Below are positions 5,780 to 62,716 of a stretch of 64,000 nt of DNA, piece after piece. Source of the DNA: Escherichia phage vB_EcoM_G37-3. The stretch is from the sequence record MK327941.1. One strand, given 5' to 3'. The first letter of the stretch is position 1. Every line of letters starts with the position of its first letter. A program made the translations under genes and the position numbers. The notes under the pieces are model-generated. The model ran no database searches. It worked only from the letters and a program-made list of their open reading frames with translations, and was not told the DNA's origin.

Positions 5780-6990
5780 TTAAGCAGGATGCGTTTCACG
5801 AATGCGTAGAACTCGCTCTAACGTCGCTCGGTCCAGCTTATGTAACTCTTTGGAATGATACATGAAACCATTGCGAGATTCCATGCAAGTGCAATCACTA
5901 TATTTTTCTTCCGCTGCCGCGATCGTCTCCAGATCTTTGGCGTACTTGCTGGTTGAATAAACTTCTCGATCACGCCACTCTAACCCAGCCTCATTGAATT
6001 TAACAATCTCGTCAAATACCCACCATCCAATGTAGATAAATGAAGTTTTGCGCCACGGGATCGGGTGTACGTAACGAAACATTTTAACAACTTCCATTGA
6101 ACATTTTCGGCTTGTACTTGCTGCAACTTCTACTGTTTCATCTTCGATCTGTTGATATAGTTTAGCAACACACCAGAATTTGGCTGTGTCATCGTAAGTA
6201 GCACTCTCTTTGAACAGATGACCGTCTGGCATGATAGAAAATCCTTCCAGTGCTTCGCCGACCTCACTACCGATTAGAGTCGGTGACGGTTGCCCTTCGC
6301 GCTGCAAATACCAGTTATATTTGATCGTCAATTAGGCATACCGCTAGAATCGCCTACAATGTCCTCTGACACAACATAATTAAGTGATATCTCATTACCT
6401 AGTGCCACGGTCTTTGATTCCACCACATCCTGATCTACGTTCATTGTTGCCAGCATGATTTTAGTCGATGCGCTAGCGGCTGAATCTTCCGACTCGCCCC
6501 ACTTTTACAGTATACACGCCGTTTTTATCTGCTGTAAATTCTTGGATCGTAATATCCTTTTTTGTGTCTATAACGTCATCGCCCTTACTCCAACTATAAT
6601 GTAGTTCATAGTTGTCTGCTGGAGTCTTCCCACCAGAAAAATTGACTGTTGCATGTAATTCTACGTCTGTTTGTGATGATACGTAGAATGCTGCGGTTCG
6701 GTGATATTTACGATTAATGCAGCTTCTTCCATGAGGAAAACTTCAGATTCTACTGATGTCATCGTATCGGTATCTTGTACCGTTACTTTATAGCTACCCG
6801 CATTTTCACTTGTTGCGTCTGCTACAGTTAGCGTAGCTGTGCTATTTTCATGCGGTTGGTCGTCTTTTGTCCATGTATATGTCAAATTGCTGGGTAATGG
6901 TTCGTCACCCGCTACAGTCGCCGTTAAGGTGAAACCATCTCCAGCAAGAAAACATCTTTTGTTAGATTGTATTGATACTGTGAAAGCCAT
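5780..6990 (-). pseudogene. hoc: hoc (highly immunogenic outer capsid protein), disrupted by frameshifts
   Basis: N-terminal Ig-like domain (MAFTVSIQ..., TYTWTKDDQ, GSYKVTV) and C-terminal capsid-binding domain (YVHPIPWRKTSFIYIGWWVFDEI...ESRNGFMYH) both match T4 Hoc but lie in different frames; at least three frame changes near 6661-6742, about 6490 and about 6335. Confidence 0.75.
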
Positions 6991-7085: not shown

Positions 7086-7250
7086 TTAGAATAGTGATGC
7101 AACGAGGCCGAAATAGTATCGATCTCGTCTGGGTATTTGTTCTGCTATAAAGTCTGCTGTACTAACAACAATCTTTAACAGAAGTGGATGACCAACGGAG
7201 CCATAAACCGGATCTTCTGTTTGATGTAATACATTGATTTTGTTAGACAT
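7086..7250 (-). CDS. Small hypothetical protein (54 aa)
   Basis: ATG at 7250 preceded by GGGAGA RBS. Confidence 0.4.
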   Translation of the reverse strand: MSNKINVLHQTEDPVYGSVGHPLLLKIVVSTADFIAEQIPRRDRYYFGLVASLF

Positions 7251-8126: not shown

Positions 8127-9814
8127 ATGCAAGATATTAAATTCACTTTCTGAACTACTCCCATGTTCAAATTGAATGTAGCGATTCAATTTTATTAGAA
8201 ATGCGAGATTATTTTAGTTTTGAAGTCGAGGGAGCGCGGTTTCAAAAAAGATTTAAGTATGGTGGATGGGATGGGCGTATTCGTCTTTTAGATTACAACG
8301 GAAAGCTGCCAATCGGTCTAACTAAAACCGTGGGAATCTTCGCTAAAAATATGGGCTATAGCGTATGGGTAGATCCTCGCTTATTCGAAAAAGAACAAGT
8401 TACAGAAGAAGAAATTACAAAATGGTGTAATAACTTAGAATTATATTCCGGTGCTAACAGGATCACCCCTCATTGGTATCAATCAAAGGCCGTCTTTGAA
8501 GGTATTTCATCATAAACGCCGTATGTTAGTTTTGCCTACGTCCGCTGGTAAATCTGCGATTGCTTGTATGTTGTCTCGTTGGTACTTAGAGAATTACGAA
8601 GGGAAAGTGTTGATCATCGTTCCTACCACGTCGCTAGTGCTGCAAATGCGTGATGACTTTGTTGATTATCGCCAGTTTCCTTATGAAGCAATTCATACTA
8701 TCATGAGCGGTACTAGTAAACACGTAGGTGATCGCCTGATCGTTGTTAGTACGTGGCAATCTGCATGTAAACAACCTAGTGAGTGGTTCCAACAATTCGG
8801 GATGGTTATTGTTGACGAATGTCACAAGGCCACTGCTAAAACCTGCTAAACATCGTTACTGATATGGATCATTGTCAATTTAAGATCGGCATGACTGGTT
8901 CCCCTCGTGACGGGAAAGCTAACATGATGCAGTATGTCGGGCTTTTCGGTGATATTTCTAAGATCGTGAGTATTGACCGCCTGATGGAAGAAGGGCAGGT
9001 GACAAAACTGAAAATTAACTGTCTTTTCCTTCGTTATACCGATGAGGAATAGCGCGGTTAAGGGGCGAGAATATGCGGAAGAGATCAAGTACATTACATC
9101 TAACCCACGACGAAATAAGTTTGCTTGTAATTTGGCGCTAAAACTCGCTAAGAAGGGCGAAAACGTATTCCTGATGTTCCGCAACACTAAGCACTGAAAA
9201 TTAACTGTCTTTTCCTTCGTTATACCGATGAGGAATGTAGCGCGGTTAAGGGGCGAGAATATGCGGAAGAGATCAAGTACATTACATCTAACCCACGACG
9301 AAATAAGTTTGCTTGTAATTTGGCGCTAAAACTCGCTAAGAAGGGCGAAAACGTATTCCTGATGTTCCGCAACACTAAGCACGGAAAACTTATGTATGAT
9401 GCGTTACAGAAGGTACACGACAAGGTTTATTATATTGACGGTGGAGTTAAGACAGAAGAACGTGATGAATTTAAGAAATTAGCGGAAGGGGAAACCGGGA
9501 TCATTTGCGTTGCATCCTATGGTGTGTTCTCTACTGGTGTTTCCATCAAGAATTTGCATCATGTTATTTTCGGTCATCCAGTGAAGGAATCAACTATCGT
9601 TCGTCAGAGTATCGGTCGTGCATTGCGTAAACATGGTTCTAAGGATATTGCAACGGTCTGGGATCTTATAGATCATCTGGCGGTGAAGACAAAGAGCAAT
9701 AATGCTAAGAAACAGTTTAGCCACCTTAATTATGCTCTTAAACATGCGCTTGAAAGAATAAAAATTTACAACACCGATCGATTCGAATATGTCACGAAAA
9801 CAATCGAGATTTAA
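8127..9814 (+). pseudogene. uvsW: uvsW (DNA/RNA helicase), disrupted by frameshifts and a tandem duplication
   Basis: Fragments in alternating frames match T4 UvsW (FSFE..G.RF, GWDGRIRLLDY, LPTSAGKS, DECH, GSPRDGKANMMQYVG, VFSTGVSIKNLHHV, TVWDLID); frame changes near 8140, 8505 and 8840, plus duplication at 9009-9382. Confidence 0.8.
9009..9382 (+). repeat. Tandem direct duplication inside uvsW (186 bp + 188 bp)
   Basis: Copies 9009-9194 and 9195-9382 identical except for a 2-nt GT indel; copy 1 reads GAG GAA TAG (stop), copy 2 reads through; junction at GAAAA microhomology. Confidence 0.9.
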
Positions 9815-9857: not shown

Positions 9858-10094
9858 ATGATTAGCTTTAAACGTTTTTTGGTTGAGGCCGCTATTGACG
9901 GTTTCATGCGTAAGATTTATTCTTGTAATACTATCGAGGGATTAAATGAACTTGAGGCATATTATGAGAAGCGCAAGAAAGAAACAGAATTGAAACCTGC
10001 TGATGATATTTCGATCCGTGATGCCATCGCTGGACGCCGTAAGCAATTGGAAGCGGACAACGAGCCAGAAGAGGAGCCGGAAGAGGATTTTTAA
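9858..10094 (+). CDS. uvsW.1: UvsW.1-like small acidic protein
   Basis: 78 aa directly downstream of uvsW; GGAG RBS; position as in T4. Confidence 0.5.
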   Translation: MISFKRFLVEAAIDGFMRKIYSCNTIEGLNELEAYYEKRKKETELKPADDISIRDAIAGRRKQLEADNEPEEEPEEDF

Positions 10095-13763: not shown

Positions 13764-14281
13764 TGACAGAAACTAAACCTATGTTAAAATTTGTTGTTCC
13801 TGTAAAAAAATTAGAGATAAACGGGAAACATATCAAGATCCCAAAAATGGGGATTAAGCAACATCGATTATTAAAAGATGTTCGTAGCTGTGATGAAACA
13901 TTAAAGATTCTTCTTGATTCAATCTGTCCTGGGTTAAACGCTGCCGAGTCTGAATTGGTTATGCTTAACCTTTGTGCGTTTAATGGTAAGTGTCTGGAAG
14001 AAAAAGATGGTCTTAAGCTGTCTGATGTGTATATTTGTACAGAGACTGAATTTACTTTAAATGGTAAAGTCTTTAAATTTAAAAATCCAATGTATACTTC
14101 TGACCCCATTATCGATGACGCTGATTTCTTGAGTCATCATTATCACGATCCTAGTGTAGACTTCCATGATTTCCCAGCTTTTATTATGGATTGGGCTACA
14201 GGATTAAGAAAAACTATTGCACTGGATACACCGGAAGGTACTATCTATGGTGGAATTAACATATTGGATCGCCTATCATGA
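13763..14281 (+). CDS. 28: Baseplate hub distal subunit gp28
   Basis: 172 aa; synteny; ATGA stop/start overlap at 14278-14281. Confidence 0.7.
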   Translation: MTETKPMLKFVVPVKKLEINGKHIKIPKMGIKQHRLLKDVRSCDETLKILLDSICPGLNAAESELVMLNLCAFNGKCLEEKDGLKLSDVYICTETEFTLNGKVFKFKNPMYTSDPIIDDADFLSHHYHDPSVDFHDFPAFIMDWATGLRKTIALDTPEGTIYGGINILDRLS

Positions 14282-14305
14282 ATGACGCATTAACATCATT
14301 TCGGG

Positions 14306-16009
14306 ATGCGCAAGGAAGCGGAAGAAAACCCGATTGATAAACTTAACAAATTAGATAAACTTGATTCTATTGATAATTTGCAAGCCGCTACCGAATTGGT
14401 GGCGGAGACAGTGGAACAAAAATCTAATGAAGTTGTTGGTGCGGTAGAGGATAACACCGCAGCCAATGAATTGACGGCAGAAAATACACAATCTACCGCT
14501 GGCAATACCCAAAAAACTTATGAAGAATTGCAAAAACTCAATAATTTCTCTTCTCAGATGAATGAGAAATTACGTGGTTTTGGTGTTATGATGGAACGTA
14601 GATTTGGTGTTGTCAGTAAAATGGCTAGCGGTATTGGTGCGATTGAAGAAGCATTGAAAAAACCGGAACAACCGCAAACAATGCCATCACCTCAGCCAGT
14701 TTTGCCTACTGTGCCGGAACAGCCTAATAATGACAACTATCAAGGTCTTCCAAAGAAAAAACCAGATGTTGAGGAACGGAAGAAAAAGAACGCCACAGAT
14801 AAGCGTAATGCAGATTCTATGGAAAATCTTCTTAAAGTTGTTCGTGGAGGATTTAAAGAAACCATAGGTATCTCTAATAAGGTCTTAGGGATGTTATTTA
14901 AGATCACTTTGACCGCTATGGCAGAAGCCGCAAAATGGGGTGCTATTTTGATGGGTATTGTTTTTGTCATTGATACCCTGATGGTTCATTTCAGATATTG
15001 GAGCGATTTATTCGAGACAAAGTTCAGTGAATTTATGGATAAGGCCGGAGAATGGGCTGGTCCTATTAGCGATATTTTAACTACTGTTCGTCAGGTTCGA
15101 GATTATTGGTCTAAAGGCGAATATGGGGAGTTAATTAAATCTCTTGTTATGGGTATTGGTGATGCATTCTATAAAACCTTTATCCAACTTGATCGAATTA
15201 TCACTACTGGTATTGCTAAAATTCTTCGCATGATCCCTGGTATGGGTGATTATGCCGATAAGTTAGAATATGGTGCTTTAAAATCTGCTGTCGCTCAAGG
15301 CTATACGCCAAATGAAAGAGAACTCGAATTAATGGATAAGATCGAGTCTGAACACGAAGAAGACAAATATGGAGAGCGCACAGGATGGACAGGAAAAGCC
15401 CGTGATATTGGCGAAGCTATTGGGGATTCTATTAAGGATAAAGTTAACGAAGGTCTTGTTAGTCTGGGCTGGAGAGATCAAAAGGATGTTGACGCAGAGA
15501 AACGACAAGAAGAATTAAAACGCGGGGAATATAAGTCTGTTTCTGCTGAACAACGATCTGCTAGTCGTAAACTTAGAATTAAAAGCGAGGGCGCGATCAA
15601 TAATATTAATGAAGTTATGGAGAATTTGAGCGGTGACTATGACAAAGAAAGAATGGGAGAGTTGAAAAAGGATATTGATGTTTACCGTGAGCAAGTTCAA
15701 GATCCTACATTAGTTGAAAGTGATCGTTCTCAGTTAGAGCGTCTTATTGAAAAATTTGATGAGATGTATGCTGATAAAACTAAGGGTGTGGTTCCAACTA
15801 ATCCTGTTCCTGCAACTGAAACGGAAACAGCAAAACAAGCGGAACGTACTGAACAAATGCAGAAACAAGCTGCAATCCAGCAACAAACGACAAATCAGAC
15901 CTCAAACGTAAATAATACACAAATTGTAACAAACAATAGAACTATTAAACAGGGTGCACCAACAACTAGAATTGATGCTCCCGGTACAATTAATATGGGG
16001 AACTTTTAA
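14306..16009 (+). CDS. 29: Baseplate hub / tail length determinator gp29
   Basis: 567 aa; synteny; start uncertain (coupled ATG at 14278 is in another frame). Confidence 0.75.
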   Translation: MRKEAEENPIDKLNKLDKLDSIDNLQAATELVAETVEQKSNEVVGAVEDNTAANELTAENTQSTAGNTQKTYEELQKLNNFSSQMNEKLRGFGVMMERRFGVVSKMASGIGAIEEALKKPEQPQTMPSPQPVLPTVPEQPNNDNYQGLPKKKPDVEERKKKNATDKRNADSMENLLKVVRGGFKETIGISNKVLGMLFKITLTAMAEAAKWGAILMGIVFVIDTLMVHFRYWSDLFETKFSEFMDKAGEWAGPISDILTTVRQVRDYWSKGEYGELIKSLVMGIGDAFYKTFIQLDRIITTGIAKILRMIPGMGDYADKLEYGALKSAVAQGYTPNERELELMDKIESEHEEDKYGERTGWTGKARDIGEAIGDSIKDKVNEGLVSLGWRDQKDVDAEKRQEELKRGEYKSVSAEQRSASRKLRIKSEGAINNINEVMENLSGDYDKERMGELKKDIDVYREQVQDPTLVESDRSQLERLIEKFDEMYADKTKGVVPTNPVPATETETAKQAERTEQMQKQAAIQQQTTNQTSNVNNTQIVTNNRTIKQGAPTTRIDAPGTINMGNF

Positions 16010-18008: not shown

Positions 18009-18033
18009 GGCGGGGATTATCCCCGCCTTTTTA
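18009..18033. terminator. Bidirectional rho-independent terminator
   Basis: GGCGGGGATTATCCCCGCC flanked by AAACGAAA and TTTTTA. Confidence 0.65.
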
Positions 18034-18543
18034 TTTGATTAAATCATCACATTGTTTGCGTAGTTTATAGCGATACTGTTTTGATTGTAGCAATTGAAGT
18101 TTTTCATAATCCCCTTCCTCATATGCAGCCGAAAGATCATCTTGATATGCTGCTTCCGTCCCGATTACACATACTCCAAATTTTCTACGACGGTCGGCAT
18201 CTTCCATTGCTTTGCGATTCATTTCTTCAATTGAATTTTCATGACCATAATAATATTCGTAAATGCGTTTCTTCTCTGCTTCTTTATCTGCCTTAATCTT
18301 TGCGATCTGTTCTGCTGATTCCGGTTGACGACCTAAACGCTGTAATGAGGCGTCTTTCTTTTCAAGGTAGTCAATCACGCAATCTTCAACGCTATTAAAT
18401 GGAAAACGTGACTCTTTCTGCCATCGTTCACATGACCGTACAAACTCGTGTGTATTCTTAGATGCAAGTGCCAGATCATGCACAGCGCACCCATTAAGCA
18501 TAGCCACTAAAGCCGCAAGACCAATCAGTTTAATCATTTTCAT
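18031..18543 (-). CDS. Putative lipoprotein
   Basis: N-terminal signal peptide with lipobox LNGC (MKMIKLIGLAALVAMLNGC). Confidence 0.55.
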   Translation of the reverse strand: MKMIKLIGLAALVAMLNGCAVHDLALASKNTHEFVRSCERWQKESRFPFNSVEDCVIDYLEKKDASLQRLGRQPESAEQIAKIKADKEAEKKRIYEYYYGHENSIEEMNRKAMEDADRRRKFGVCVIGTEAAYQDDLSAAYEEGDYEKLQLLQSKQYRYKLRKQCDDLIK

Positions 18544-32631: not shown

Positions 32632-33242
32632 TTATTTCGCGACCTTTGGATTTCGCCGCAGACCGGAATGTATTTGCGCTATACAACAATAAGAAACATT
32701 AAACATATCAGCTATAATTTGCTTCTTAACTTTTCCTTTAAGCCGCATTATTTCTTCGACTTGCGCATTTGTCAGTTTTGCCCGTGAGTGGTTTTCACCG
32801 ACATTGTTATTGAGTCCAGTTCTAAATGAATGTCTCATATTTTCTAGTAAGGTTACTATTTCTAGATTCCACACATAATTGCAGGTTTTACACCATTGAT
32901 GTGATTAACCTCAAGTCCGGTAACGTCTCCTAGAAATGCATTTGCTACAAGTCGATGTATCTTTTCGGCTTTAACTGAGATTTTACCATTGTCTTTTTGT
33001 TTTGACAATGTTGAATAATAATATCCATATCGGTCTAAAATTGGTTTTATTATTTTACCAACACGTTTTTGTTTTACGAGCTTAATATTACCGGGAGAAA
33101 CTTCTCTATAAAATTCGATACTTCGGTCAATAGATCTCAATCTACCATAATTAGAGATTTCATACCACGGATAACCTACAGCTTGTCTCCATTCTTCCGG
33201 CGCTGGTAATATGATATTATCATCTTTTGTTTCCATTGTCAA
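32632..33242 (-). pseudogene. HNH homing endonuclease (NUMOD4 + HNH_3), frameshifted
   Basis: N-terminal ORF has YEISNYGRLRS and HRLVANAF...VNHINGVK, then stops; next frame continues NLEIVTLLENMRHSFRTGL; single frame change near 32870. Confidence 0.6.
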
Positions 33243-39363: not shown

Positions 39364-40523
39364 AGATATTTCCCGAATCGGTTGTAGTCGTCGTCTGTTA
39401 AATCGGTATTAACCTGAGATACCAGATACATAATCTCTACTTCTTGCGCTGCATTCTGTACTTCGTCAGAGTTCAACCATTTACGCATCCACGGTAACGG
39501 ATGACGACGAACACTAAACGGGCTTTTCAGTCCGGCAGCACGCATACGGGAATCTGCCAGGTATTCTACATAGGTTTTCAGAATTTCCGGTGACAGGTTA
39601 GGAATTGCCCCCATTGCGAATAGGTGGTCTACCCATTCTTTTTCTTGCTCGACAACATCCAGAAAGATTTTCGTTGCTTCACCTTCAAGTTCTTCCGCAA
39701 TCTGTTTCCACTCATCACCATCAACCCCCGTTTGCCATTGACGAATAATGTATTGTGTGCCTTTTAAGTGAAGTTGTTCATCACGCGCAATAAATTTCAT
39801 GATCTTCGCGTTACCTTCCAGTAAACCACGTTCGGCAAAGCTGAAAGTACATGCAAAGGACACATAAAAACGAATTGCTTCCAGTGCATTGACGCAGTGT
39901 GCACACAGATAAATCGAAGCCATCAGATCTCGTTTTGTATCTTCAAAAAATCTTCTTGCATCATCTAATGCTGTCTGGTCGTCTCGTTCTTCCCAATAGC
40001 GGAGATCTTCTTTTGCATTCTCATACTTACGAATCCAATAAAGAACATCATCATAATATTTCCCGATAGATTCCGCTCGCTTCATGATAGCAGGGTTATC
40101 GATGATCTGGTCGAACTCACTAGCCGGATCAATGAAACAGTTACGCATAATGTGTGTATAGCTTCGGCTATGAATCGTTTCGCTGAATGTCCATGTTTGC
40201 AACCATGTATCGAGAGTTGGATCAGATACAATTGGACCAAATACACGGGCTGGCGCTCTGCCTTGAATCGAATCTAGCAAAGTTTGATAACGTAAGTTCT
40301 CGGTGAAGAAACGCTTTTCAACATCGCTCATATTCAGATATTGAATGCGGTCAGTTGCAAGTGAAATCTCTTCTGGACGCCAGAAAAATGACAACTGCTT
40401 CTCGATCAACTCTTCAAATACTTGATGACGCTGAATATCATAACGAGCAATCCCTAAATCACTACCAAAAAACATCGGTTCGGTCATAATATCAACATGT
40501 TCACGATTAAATACGCTCATCAC
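39360..40523 (-). CDS. nrdB: Ribonucleotide reductase small subunit
   Basis: 387 aa; R2-type ferritin-like motifs; synteny. Confidence 0.85.
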   Translation of the reverse strand: MMSVFNREHVDIMTEPMFFGSDLGIARYDIQRHQVFEELIEKQLSFFWRPEEISLATDRIQYLNMSDVEKRFFTENLRYQTLLDSIQGRAPARVFGPIVSDPTLDTWLQTWTFSETIHSRSYTHIMRNCFIDPASEFDQIIDNPAIMKRAESIGKYYDDVLYWIRKYENAKEDLRYWEERDDQTALDDARRFFEDTKRDLMASIYLCAHCVNALEAIRFYVSFACTFSFAERGLLEGNAKIMKFIARDEQLHLKGTQYIIRQWQTGVDGDEWKQIAEELEGEATKIFLDVVEQEKEWVDHLFAMGAIPNLSPEILKTYVEYLADSRMRAAGLKSPFSVRRHPLPWMRKWLNSDEVQNAAQEVEIMYLVSQVNTDLTDDDYNRFGKYL

Positions 40524-41062
40524 TATTCTCCATCAATTTTGTTTATATTGTAACCCATGTTGCCTTTTTCTATTTCTCTCAACGCAACTGAATTAAACGC
40601 TCTTGCCGCATCTTGTTCGCTATCAAATCTCCCTATATGAACACTCTTTCCTTGTATATTAATATGAACTAGCCATCTATTTGTGTACTTACACCAACTT
40701 ACCCCGTTATATTTTGATGATGCACCTTTAAATTTAGTTCTGTTTCGATTGTTGACAGAATAATCAGTACCTCGTAAATTTTCTATATGATTGTTCAGCT
40801 TGTTTCGGTCGATGTGATCTATAACTTTAGGCTTATGCCCGTGAAACATATGATAAATCACATGATGTATTAACTTCTTTCTATTGTCTACTGTTAGTTG
40901 AAGATATCCCCCATTATGTGGACTTCCAACCTCATCACCAACTTTAACTTTATTGCTTGTTGAAACCTTTCTGAAAAGTTTACCATCTTCGTATTTAAAT
41001 AGATAATGATACCTTTCGTAAAGTATTCGGTCCTCTTCCGTATAATGTATTACCTCATACAT
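40523..41062 (-). CDS. HNH-AP2 homing endonuclease (mobE-like position)
   Basis: HNH (HHVIYH...IDHIDRNKLNNHIENLR) plus AP2 domain (YNGVSW...GRFDSEQDAARAFN); located between nrdA and nrdB. Confidence 0.65.
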   Translation of the reverse strand: MYEVIHYTEEDRILYERYHYLFKYEDGKLFRKVSTSNKVKVGDEVGSPHNGGYLQLTVDNRKKLIHHVIYHMFHGHKPKVIDHIDRNKLNNHIENLRGTDYSVNNRNRTKFKGASSKYNGVSWCKYTNRWLVHINIQGKSVHIGRFDSEQDAARAFNSVALREIEKGNMGYNINKIDGE

Positions 41063-51611: not shown

Positions 51612-52193
51612 TCATCCTCTTTTTGGAAAATTTAAATAAGCATACTCGCCAACTATTTCATGTGCTGCACGGTCATAAGCCTTAGCCGCCTCAACTTCTG
51701 TCTCAAAGTATCCTAGATGTATATTCTTTCGATTGATAACAATATACGCCTTCCACGGCTTTTTCTTGCTTGGTGATAATGATACACCTTTATATTTGCT
51801 ATGGCAAGCCTTTTTCTTTGAGACGTTAAACTGATTTTGCTGTTCGGTTGCTTCTCTCATGTTTGACGGTCTATTGTTAGTTTTGTCTTGGTCTATGTGA
51901 TCTATTCGTTCAACCTGAGTACCATACTCTAAAAACCAGACAACTCTATGTACAAACAGATTAAGTTTATGACCATTGTTGTAAAATGTAAAGTATAAAT
52001 ATCCTTCTTTATGGAGACATACCCTTACCACATCACCTTTTTTGTATATGGACCCTTCTTTTCGGAATCCAGCAGCTACAGAATCCTTTAAATGGTATAA
52101 TATTCCATCGACATGATAGAATCTACCTTTTATCGCTTTCTGTGTCTCGATATCCCAAAATTTTGTTTTTGCCACAACAAACACCTCACACAA
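51612..52193 (-). CDS. HNH-AP2 homing endonuclease
   Basis: HRVVWFLEYG...IDHIDQDKTNNR (HNH) and YKGVS...GYFETEVEAAKAYD (AP2); between rnh and gene 34. Confidence 0.6.
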   Translation of the reverse strand: MCEVFVVAKTKFWDIETQKAIKGRFYHVDGILYHLKDSVAAGFRKEGSIYKKGDVVRVCLHKEGYLYFTFYNNGHKLNLFVHRVVWFLEYGTQVERIDHIDQDKTNNRPSNMREATEQQNQFNVSKKKACHSKYKGVSLSPSKKKPWKAYIVINRKNIHLGYFETEVEAAKAYDRAAHEIVGEYAYLNFPKRG

Positions 52194-61809: not shown

Positions 61810-62106
61810 ATGGGATATTGGGTCAGTAGTGAAATTAATACTAAAATCGATGCTTTAAAATGGCATGTATTTGATATTCCTAACGGCTATGGTACTGCTC
61901 GCGCTGGCGTTGCTGTCATGCGTCATAATGCTGGTGGTGGATGGTCTGATGCACATATTAACGTAGATGGTTTGACCGTTGCTCGTCGTCGTGGTGGGTC
62001 CAATTGGGGATCTACTATAAATTCGTTTGTTCCTGCTGGCTGTACCGTCTCCTTTGGTTTAGGGGGTGAAGGTGGTGTTGAATATTTTAAATTCATGGAG
62101 TTTTAA
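61810..62106 (+). CDS. Glycine-rich small protein, tandem paralog A (FDIPNG family)
   Basis: ATG 61810 with AAGGA RBS; FDIPNGYG, NAGGGW, TVSFGLGGEGG. Confidence 0.55.
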   Translation: MGYWVSSEINTKIDALKWHVFDIPNGYGTARAGVAVMRHNAGGGWSDAHINVDGLTVARRRGGSNWGSTINSFVPAGCTVSFGLGGEGGVEYFKFMEF

Positions 62107-62108
62107 TT

Positions 62109-62414
62109 ATGGCTGGATGGATAAATCAAAGAATGTCAAACGCTATTAGTATTTGGGCTAATGGTGGATATTTTGATATCCCTAACGGTTGGGTCACTGA
62201 TTCATGCGGAATTGTTTTTGCTCATATGGAAGCCATTAACGGTGCTGGTGATCTTGGTTCTGAATTGGCTGTAAATGGATTGATTGAATCAGGTCATCAC
62301 GCTGGTAATGCCGGAAGTTGGGGCGCTAGTTCTTTAGTTGGCGCTGGTGCTACCGTTAGCTTTACATTGGGTAAAGGTAGTTTGCATTATTTCAAATTCA
62401 GGAGAATGCACTAA
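62109..62414 (+). CDS. Glycine-rich small protein, tandem paralog B
   Basis: GGAG RBS; FDIPNGW, ESGHHAGNAGSWG, TVSFTLG. Confidence 0.55.
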   Translation: MAGWINQRMSNAISIWANGGYFDIPNGWVTDSCGIVFAHMEAINGAGDLGSELAVNGLIESGHHAGNAGSWGASSLVGAGATVSFTLGKGSLHYFKFRRMH

Positions 62415-62716
62415 TGGCATTTTGGGTAGATGGCGCTTTGGGGAATAGGGCGGGTAAAGCAAATCAAGGATGGTTTGATATTCCTAACGGTTGGACAGCC
62501 GACGCTTTCGGGACTATTTCATTTTCCGCTCATTCTTCCGGTGGTGGCGGCGGTGACTCTGAATTGTTTATTCATGGTTTTTGTGTTTCTGGAAGCCATA
62601 AGGGTCATGATTGGGGACAGATCCATTCTTGTATTGCACCGCAAGGGGCGGTAATTACCGTTAGCACAAATAGGGGGGTCGCTCATCTTCGTTATAGACG
62701 TTTGAGCAACCGCTAA
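62414..62716 (+). CDS. Glycine-rich small protein, tandem paralog C
   Basis: AGGAGA RBS; FDIPNGW, SSGGGGGD, SGSHKGHDWG. Confidence 0.55.
   Translation: MAFWVDGALGNRAGKANQGWFDIPNGWTADAFGTISFSAHSSGGGGGDSELFIHGFCVSGSHKGHDWGQIHSCIAPQGAVITVSTNRGVAHLRYRRLSNR

Follow-up and report, generated by a model that had tools for sequence, protein, structure and literature searches.

A disrupted uvsW gene in an RB49-like phage record: private slippage-type frameshifts and a tandem duplication that probably represent a recent null allele

The 64-kb window, by which we mean the whole stretch of DNA analyzed here, belongs to a T4-type phage of the genus Krischvirus (RB49-like). It is 97.5–98.6% identical to the Escherichia phages GoldenSnicker, RB49, Phi1, JSE and W115 and to about 50 others, none of which is identical to it, and it contains 0 ambiguous bases. 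When about 100 proteins annotated in GoldenSnicker were mapped to the window, approximately 90 genes proved to be intact, every structural and replication gene among them. The only genes found to be broken in this mapping were uvsW (five pieces), hoc (four pieces) and a few tiny ORFs. The uvsW gene is located on the plus strand at positions 8127–9814, within the conserved block hoc – inh – uvsW – uvsW.1 – uvsY – 25 – 26. The adjacent uvsW.1 gene (9858–10094, plus strand) is intact and encodes a protein of 78 aa with a match to the Pfam domain UvsW-1 (PF11637, 9e-22). T4 and five T4-like genomes carry uvsW and uvsW.1 as two distinct, conserved ORFs, and an earlier annotation in which the two T4 genes were fused was the result of a sequencing error (PMC1524935).

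As written, the disrupted uvsW gene is a pseudogene of 1688 nt, as compared to the wild-type length of 1503 nt. T4 UvsW is an SF2 helicase with 3'-5' polarity that acts in recombination, repair and R-loop unwinding, and it has orthologues in RB49, Phi1, JSE and other phages. Undoing three 1-nt indels and taking out the first copy of an internal tandem duplication yielded a 1503-nt ORF with a 500-aa product, which differs at two residues from UvsW of RB49, GoldenSnicker and FL04. Pfam analysis of this lesion-reverted translation identified the domains UvsW_N (PF21241, 2.8e-42), ResIII (PF04851, 2e-21) and Helicase_C (PF00271, 1.8e-11), and positions 3–499 of the query aligned to positions 2–501 of chain 2oca_A in the T4 UvsW crystal structure (E = 2.2e-196). 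The likeness to T4 UvsW (PDB 2OCA, 1RIF) comprises this end-to-end alignment, the UvsW_N, ResIII and Helicase_C architecture and the hoc – inh – uvsW – uvsW.1 – uvsY neighbourhood, of which the section from inh to uvsY is kept as expected of a T4 UvsW orthologue. Sequence, architecture and synteny place the disrupted locus in the UvsW family; the name uvsW, given to the gene in an initial annotation of the same DNA, agrees with the Pfam architecture of the reverted gene, the full-length match to 2OCA and the gene context. The difference from the T4 protein is that the ORF in the window is broken five times, and that motifs I–VI never occur together in one chain. UvsW is intact in every relative examined, and all of them encode it as a single 500-aa chain.

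The lesions in uvsW were placed by alignment to three and then to ten relatives, and the reading frames were established by ORF listing and translation. Three 1-nt indels were observed, all given here on the plus strand. An A3 run at 8139–8141, which is A4 in all 11 relatives examined, causes a -1 frameshift at codon 4; a T3 run at 8505–8507, which is T2 in the relatives, causes a +1 frameshift at codon 127; and an A4 run at 8838–8841, which is A5 in the relatives, causes a -1 frameshift at codon 237, just past the DECH sequence of motif II. Including a 2-nt deletion in the first copy of the tandem duplication, there are four small frame-changing lesions in uvsW in addition to the duplication itself. 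The small indels were absent from 11 of the 11 aligned relatives.

The UvsW-homologous pieces, all on the plus strand, alternate between phases 0 and 2. Such an alternation, brought about by three frameshifts, had been proposed in the initial annotation and was borne out both by translation of the ORFs and by the alignment to the relatives. The first piece (8127–8150, phase 0) consists of eight codons from the ATG at 8127 and is terminated by a TGA at 8151–8153. The homology continues in phase 2 at 8141–8512 (TAA at 8513–8515), in phase 0 at 8439–8846 (TAA at 8847–8849), in phase 2 at 8840–9049 (TAG at 9050–9052), in phase 0 at 9012–9194, which is the remainder of the first copy of the duplication, and in phase 2 at 9191–9811, which ends at the natural stop at 9812–9814. 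Walker A (8535–8555) and the DECH motif (8814–8825) are both in phase 0, and motifs III (8891–8905) and VI (9605–9628) are both in phase 2, behind stop codons. No polypeptide from the sequence as written holds both Walker A/DECH and motifs III/VI, and motifs I, II, III and VI are not joined in a single uninterrupted frame. Because the first lesion ends translation after eight codons, and because stops and split frames separate the helicase motifs, the earlier claim that this sequence cannot yield an intact UvsW holds true.

The tandem duplication was identified by TRF and a repeat search as 2.0 copies with 98% matches, arranged head-to-tail with no spacer. Copy 1 (9007–9192, plus strand) is 186 nt long, and copy 2 (9193–9380, plus strand) is 188 nt long, wild-type-like and in frame with the C-terminal part that includes motif VI. 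The positions first proposed for the two copies, 9009–9194 and 9195–9382, describe the same event and are shifted by the 2-nt ambiguity "AC". The duplicated unit corresponds to UvsW codons 294–357, at the start of RecA-like domain 2. The copies are identical save for a 2-nt gap (TG/GT) at 9050 in copy 1, which converts GAA TGT AGC into GAA TAG; alignment of the copies thus confirmed the previously noted loss of two nucleotides and the resulting in-frame TAG (9050–9052, plus strand). Owing to the 2-nt loss, the insert measures 186 nt (62 codons), and the frame would therefore run from copy 1 into copy 2, but for the TAG that stems from the same deletion. At the duplication site, 55 of the 55 Krischvirus records span 315 bp, as compared to 501 bp in the window. 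Copy 1 is absent from all 55 public Krischvirus records, and since each of them is single-copy, the duplication is private and derived.

The novel junction, AC|TGAAAA (9191–9200, plus strand), reads ...CACTAAGCAC|TGAAAATTAAC... across the copies. The window contains this junction a single time, chance would not be expected to produce it, and it was not found in the phage collection, IMG/VR, metagenome contigs or GTDB genomes. The initial annotation had placed the junction in a GAAAA microhomology. With regard to its exact extent this does not hold, as the exact microhomology is AC only (2 nt, P = 0.17 by chance), and GAAAA comes after one T/G mismatch past AC. The proposed likeness of the breakpoints is, however, significant: they share the imperfect octamer AC[T/G]GAAAA, with a match of 7/8 (P = 0.0014 for random breakpoint pairs), and are therefore non-random in the sense originally intended. 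The 7/8 similarity favours a homology-guided event at the DNA level over an arbitrary assembly join.

Similar lesions in hoc, in an HNH endonuclease gene and at the start of gene 29 were overlooked in the initial annotation. The disrupted hoc gene (5780–6990, minus strand), which encodes a dispensable capsid decoration protein, contains three private indels, namely the loss of an A from an A3 run at 6331, the loss of CA from CACAC at 6499 and the loss of an A from another A3 run at 6686/6688. Reverting the three indels restores a clean 404-aa Hoc. The gene for a homing endonuclease with NUMOD4 and HNH_3 domains (32632–33236, minus strand) is missing from the panel of relatives and is intact, with a product of 203 aa, in ECD7 and E26. 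Relative to these two phages it has suffered two 1-nt deletions, one of which, at 32885 (T5 to T4), splits the endonuclease into 124 + 68 aa, and the second of which, at 32632, is located near the stop. Gene 29 is an essential gene, and its start (14278–14308, plus strand) contains a private 2-nt deletion (CGCG to CG) at 14301 that leaves codons 1–9 out of frame. An in-frame ATG at 14306 (codon 11), 5 nt past the deletion, opens a 567-codon ORF.

Lesions are thus observed at three separate places, at 5.8–7.0, 8.1–9.8 and 32.6–33.2 kb, in addition to the rescuable position in gene 29. Since the affected genes are located at three separate places, the pattern is not that of one low-quality patch. 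The idea that the lesions are regional (1.9–14.3 kb) and represent an artefact of a contig end or a long-read patch was dropped in view of the two HNH lesions at 32.6–32.9 kb, and is also disfavoured because the 5 kb immediately right of the junction are free of lesions. Other mobile-endonuclease inserts, at 40.5–41.1 and 51.6–52.2 kb, showed no length difference from their closest relatives and hence no lesions.

Private indels were scored against a panel that at first consisted of five relatives. A 75-bp insertion at 7140 that had looked private proved to be a natural allele common to Phi1, GEC-3S, MIZ4/5 and ECD7, and the panel of five genomes was therefore judged too small and was enlarged to ten. 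Compared with these ten relatives, the private indels at 0.56–14.7 kb are located in the g23–g24 spacer, which is variable (1993 and 2082), in hoc (three), in uvsW (the set described above) and at 14301. From 18.5 to 64 kb the panel revealed only four, each of 1 nt and all in intergenic homopolymers. In the conserved intact coding sequences, 40,989 nt in total, private small indels number 0 and private substitutions 251, of which 56 are nonsynonymous (N) and 195 synonymous (S). The corresponding numbers are 5 indels and 22 substitutions in 3,142 nt of conserved intergenic DNA, and 6 indels and 14 substitutions in uvsW and hoc. The indel density in uvsW and hoc is indistinguishable from that of the intergenic DNA in the window (binomial p = 0.76). 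When the intergenic indel rate is applied to the intact coding sequences, about 65 indels are expected, as compared to the 0 observed. Outside the affected genes, the sequence is of high quality and has been filtered by selection.

The private substitutions of uvsW are of normal density (2N:5S), and those of hoc amount to 4N:3S. A comparison of the N:S ratio of uvsW and hoc with that of the intact genes gave a Fisher p of 0.10, and uvsW alone showed no relaxation. Replication genes appear to be under pure purifying selection, for example nrdA, with private substitutions of 18 S : 0 N. Given that the substitutions in uvsW look purified and that the repaired protein is near-identical to those of the relatives, the lesions must be very young.

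Three control genomes (GoldenSnicker, W115 and OZ_RB49) displayed 3–5 private small indels each, all of which are in intergenic DNA or tiny ORFs. The control record of JSE, from the 454 era, displayed eight private small indels, three of which are within large conserved genes, and JSE gp27 is annotated in two pieces. The pattern in JSE has the look of genuine sequencing error, and the window is unlike JSE.

Five of the six 1-nt indels are located in runs of at least three bases (P = 8e-4 versus uniform placement), with a moderate dependence on run length; in uvsW, neither the only A6 run nor any of the other A5 runs has been hit. Three lesions are 2-nt deletions, two of these in the dinucleotide repeats CACAC and CGCG. 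The contexts of the lesions are thus of the slippage type, as to which a run-length model does not discriminate between slippage in vivo and sequencing error. The lesions were not shared by any of the 11 aligned relatives, the 55 records or the IMG/VR, metagenome or GTDB contigs. Two lesion k-mers were likewise not found in IMG/VR, where the power is low (2 wild-type contigs), or in the metagenome and GTDB data, and exact protein matches to Inh and to a fragment of UvsW were looked for and not found. A search for mutator-type changes in rnh, ligase, gp32 and gp59 found none, and a mutator allele in these genes is unsupported, their private changes being synonymous except for A277V in gp32; gp43, 44, 45 and 62 lie outside the window. 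Nothing relevant was found in the literature on uvsW or hoc pseudogenes in RB49-like phages.

The lesions are private and derived, occur in slippage-type contexts and are restricted to dispensable sequence. Based on these sequence comparisons, we consider it probable (about 0.6) that uvsW is a genuine and very recent null allele in a viable RB49-like Krischvirus, and that the allele arose by slippage and microhomology duplication. On this reading, the lesions would be present in the DNA of the phage. The earlier proposal of slippage or illegitimate recombination fits the run-associated indels and the significant similarity of the breakpoints. Strand slippage at short homopolymers would have given rise to the three 1-base indels in uvsW, and two similar octamers 188 nt apart would have guided a misalignment, or served as sites of illegitimate recombination, to produce the frame-breaking 188-bp tandem duplication, with copy 1 presumably losing 2 nt after the duplication. 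Whatever the order of events, the slip at codon 4 alone is null. Each lesion on its own would abolish the SF2 helicase, so that no UvsW would be made, while uvsW.1 is intact.

The same process would have left the multiple lesions in the dispensable hoc gene and in the selfish HNH endonuclease gene, and in gene 29 it would have been tolerated only at a site from which an in-frame ATG allows the protein to be rescued. The location of the gene 29 lesion 5 nt before an ATG is as expected were the lesions filtered by viability. The lesion sites avoid about 41 kb of constrained coding sequence, a pattern that random sequencing error fits poorly. In T4, the loss of UvsW leads to sensitivity to UV and hydroxyurea and to less recombination-dependent replication and branch migration; the unwinding of origin R-loops and the regression of forks are lost, and replication from origin R-loops persists. 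By analogy with T4 genetics, the phage would be expected to display a "dar"-type phenotype, and the locus would be nearer in function to the T4 uvsW (dar) null mutant than to the enzyme.

Spontaneous mutation in T-even phages includes Streisinger slippage at base runs as well as duplications and deletions that end in short direct repeats, as in T4 rII. The window resembles this spectrum in its +/-1 changes in runs, its 2-nt losses in CACAC and CGCG and its duplication bounded by an imperfect repeat. It differs in that the lesions are in short rather than the longest runs, and in that several lesions per gene are found in the record of a wild isolate and not in a selected mutant. A likeness to hoc-less or hoc-defective T4-type phages is also evident, since hoc in the window is broken by the same type of lesion as uvsW. 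However, a phage lacking hoc is nothing unusual, while all relatives examined have an intact uvsW.

The latter observation speaks against a biological origin, in that UvsW is kept in every relative examined and its loss is thus unexpected. Furthermore, the five lesions in uvsW, unaccompanied by substitutions, exceed what simple neutral decay predicts. A real origin calls for conditions biased towards indels, for example laboratory passage through bottlenecks, a replisome prone to frameshifts, or selection that favours loss of function. Null mutations are most commonly frameshifts, and each of these regimes would therefore explain a spectrum that is rich in indels and poor in substitutions. It is improbable that UvsW, and with it Hoc, has truly been lost in a manner where the multi-hit, indel-only pattern reflects not drift but selection or a replisome prone to frameshifts and duplications. 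If so, the loss may have been selected, for example because a host defence recognizes these proteins and is evaded in their absence, and independent null alleles may have been joined by the very high recombination of the T-even type. The function of UvsW might then be supplied in trans by an intact UvsW-like helicase of an E. coli prophage.

The main rival explanation, possible but in our judgement less likely, is a local error of the consensus or assembly, such that uvsW, hoc, the HNH endonuclease gene and gene 29 are intact in the phage and the lesions come from short patches of low quality. When a deposited phage genome contains a gene riddled with frameshifts, an error is usually the cause, and here the reversion of the lesions yields near-perfect proteins, with a UvsW that is 2 aa from that of RB49 and a clean 404-aa Hoc. 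With 2 N : 5 S, the substitutions in uvsW have the appearance of full purification; the indels tend to fall in base runs and are more often deletions than insertions, which is also the case in 454, Ion or nanopore data; and no other assembly shares the lesions. There is also precedent in the same clade and gene region, in the split gp27 of JSE and the fused T4 uvsW and uvsW.1 (PMC1524935), where undoing the error restores the protein. Errors should, however, ignore gene function, as do these artefacts, of which those of JSE fall in conserved genes, whereas the lesions in the window are confined to dispensable genes. Three such genes, ~3.3 kb together, contain 9–10 private indels, as compared to 0 in ~41 kb of intact coding sequence, and one of the lesions is a duplication bounded by microhomology. 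The breakpoints of the latter share a significant octamer (P = 0.0014), which is far below the k-mer of any assembler. Moreover, the lesions are in short runs (A3, T2, A4–5) and the A6 run and other A5 runs of uvsW are spared; three remove 2 nt, in two cases from a dinucleotide repeat; and the sole lesion of an essential gene lies just ahead of a rescuing ATG.

It would be clear why the lesions are multiple, why only dispensable genes contain them and why substitutions do not accompany them if the consensus were a chimera of a heterogeneous lysate, in which the variants are real and reside on different molecules, and the haplotype as written possibly does not exist. We regard this as decidedly improbable, since mutually exclusive alleles cannot each exceed 50% and a majority-rule consensus would not gather five of them in one gene; no feature of the sequence bears on it, the number of ambiguity codes being 0. 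The equality of the indel densities in uvsW and hoc and in intergenic DNA could also be taken to suggest an old uvsW pseudogene that has decayed neutrally along the whole private branch of the lineage. Such an age is highly improbable in view of the seven private substitutions in uvsW, of which five are synonymous, the mere two amino-acid differences from the relatives and the absence of the lesions from every relative. That uvsW is still functional, whether through programmed recoding or because several chains together form a split helicase, is hardly conceivable. Nothing beyond the high conservation of the remaining pieces argues for it, and it would take four frame changes and read-through of the TAG, at runs as short as T3/A3 and with stops 3–13 nt from each slip. 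The 62 duplicated codons would in addition disrupt RecA-like domain 2, and the relatives all encode a single 500-aa chain.

If the lesions are real, as in the recent null allele that we favour, the isolate is a natural uvsW-null, hoc-null relative of RB49. It would provide a strain in which the need for UvsW in fork regression, R-loop removal and recombination-dependent replication can be studied in a T4-type phage without modified cytosine, and a ready-made test of whether prophage-borne UvsW homologues can substitute. Its repair capacity and capsid decoration would differ from those of the reference, which is relevant to users in therapy, display and genetics. Should the lesions be artefacts, the record would have to be corrected to keep false pseudogene annotations from spreading. 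In either case, slippage, microhomology duplication and the loss of accessory genes are textbook mechanisms.

An intact UvsW-like helicase was identified in 32 of 5,426 complete E. coli genomes, and the single locus examined lies inside a prophage at ycdX; the E. coli prophage helicase has the accession WP_112844118.1. Contamination by, or gene conversion from, this prophage homologue was considered and rejected as the source of the window's private alleles and indels, which are not those of the prophage. Nucleotides ~801–1300 of the prophage UvsW-like gene are 97–100% identical to Krischvirus uvsW, and its flanks are 57–79% identical. Judged from this identity profile, a temperate and a virulent phage have recently exchanged this segment, which covers the unit that is duplicated here.

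The hoc gene, encoding the head outer capsid protein (window 5780-6990, minus strand), contains three indels that are private to the window among the aligned Krischvirus relatives: loss of an A at 6331, of CA at 6499 and of an A at 6686/6688. Undoing the three indels restores a clean Hoc protein of 404 amino acids, which carries two private amino acid changes. As written, hoc is, like uvsW, a pseudogene. In the neighbouring spacer, a 75-bp segment flanked by TTCTG (7140-7214) is variably present among the relatives. It is 100% identical in Phi1, GEC-3S, MIZ4/5 and ECD7, and missing in GoldenSnicker, JSE, FL04, W115 and RB49. The segment is a natural allele and alters which small ORF separates hoc and inh.

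A private 2-nt deletion (CGCG to CG, at 14301) was also identified at the 5' end (14278-14308, plus strand) of gene 29, which encodes the essential tail-length determinator. The deletion throws codons 1 to 9 or 10 out of frame, but if translation starts instead at position 14306, where there is an ATG in the correct frame, a gp29 shortened by 10 N-terminal residues could be made. An HNH homing endonuclease gene with NUMOD4 and HNH_3 domains (32632-33236, minus strand) is split into pieces of 124 and 68 amino acids by a 1-nt deletion at 32885, and carries a further 1-nt deletion at 32632, close to the stop codon. Its homologue is an intact protein of 203 amino acids in ECD7 and E26, and is missing from many relatives. 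Two other mobile-endonuclease-like inserts on the minus strand, one of 179 amino acids with HNH_3 and AP2 domains between nrdB and nrdA (40523-41062) and one with AP2 only, an 82-amino-acid ORF upstream of gene 34 (51612-51860), are equal in length to those of the closest relatives and therefore show no private lesions.

Indels in conserved genes are also present in the public reference record of phage JSE (EU863408.1), which displays private 1-nt indels at positions equivalent to 13373, 25093 and 37119 of the window, and in which the annotation of gp27 is split in two pieces. Both features probably represent 454 sequencing errors. Genes 23 and 24 are separated by a spacer that contains tiny ORFs (approximately 1650-2300) and is prone to indels in several genomes, with sites at 1968, 1993 and 2082 in the window, 1751 in W115, and 1652 and 2083 in JSE.

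The first kilobase contains 39 private substitutions, and the major capsid protein encoded by gene 23 is intact and 95.9% identical. Private substitutions and compensating indels are densely clustered at approximately 460-810 within this gene, a pattern that probably reflects a recombination patch from a donor of an unsampled lineage. Downstream of gene 54, the gene at 18031-18543 (minus strand) has been replaced, its version being only 31% identical to the "putative lipoprotein" of the relatives. Gene 37 is only 52% identical to that of GoldenSnicker, and is followed by a tandem array of three paralogous ORFs, each about 100 amino acids long (61810-62716, plus strand), which have the motif F/WDIPNGW in common, lie within a 945-bp insert missing from four relatives, and gave no match in a Pfam search.

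An intact UvsW-like DEAD/DEAH helicase gene is located in E. coli CFSAN061761 (NZ_CP042903.1, 2918694-2920184; 5821-7311 of our locus L018), adjoining a serine recombinase gene; the prophage that carries it has ycdX as its insertion site. Of 5,426 E. coli genomes, 32 have similar matches. Compared with Krischvirus uvsW the gene is a mosaic, with 97-100% identity at nucleotides ~801-1300 and 57-79% in the flanks, which shows that temperate and virulent phages have recently exchanged sequence.
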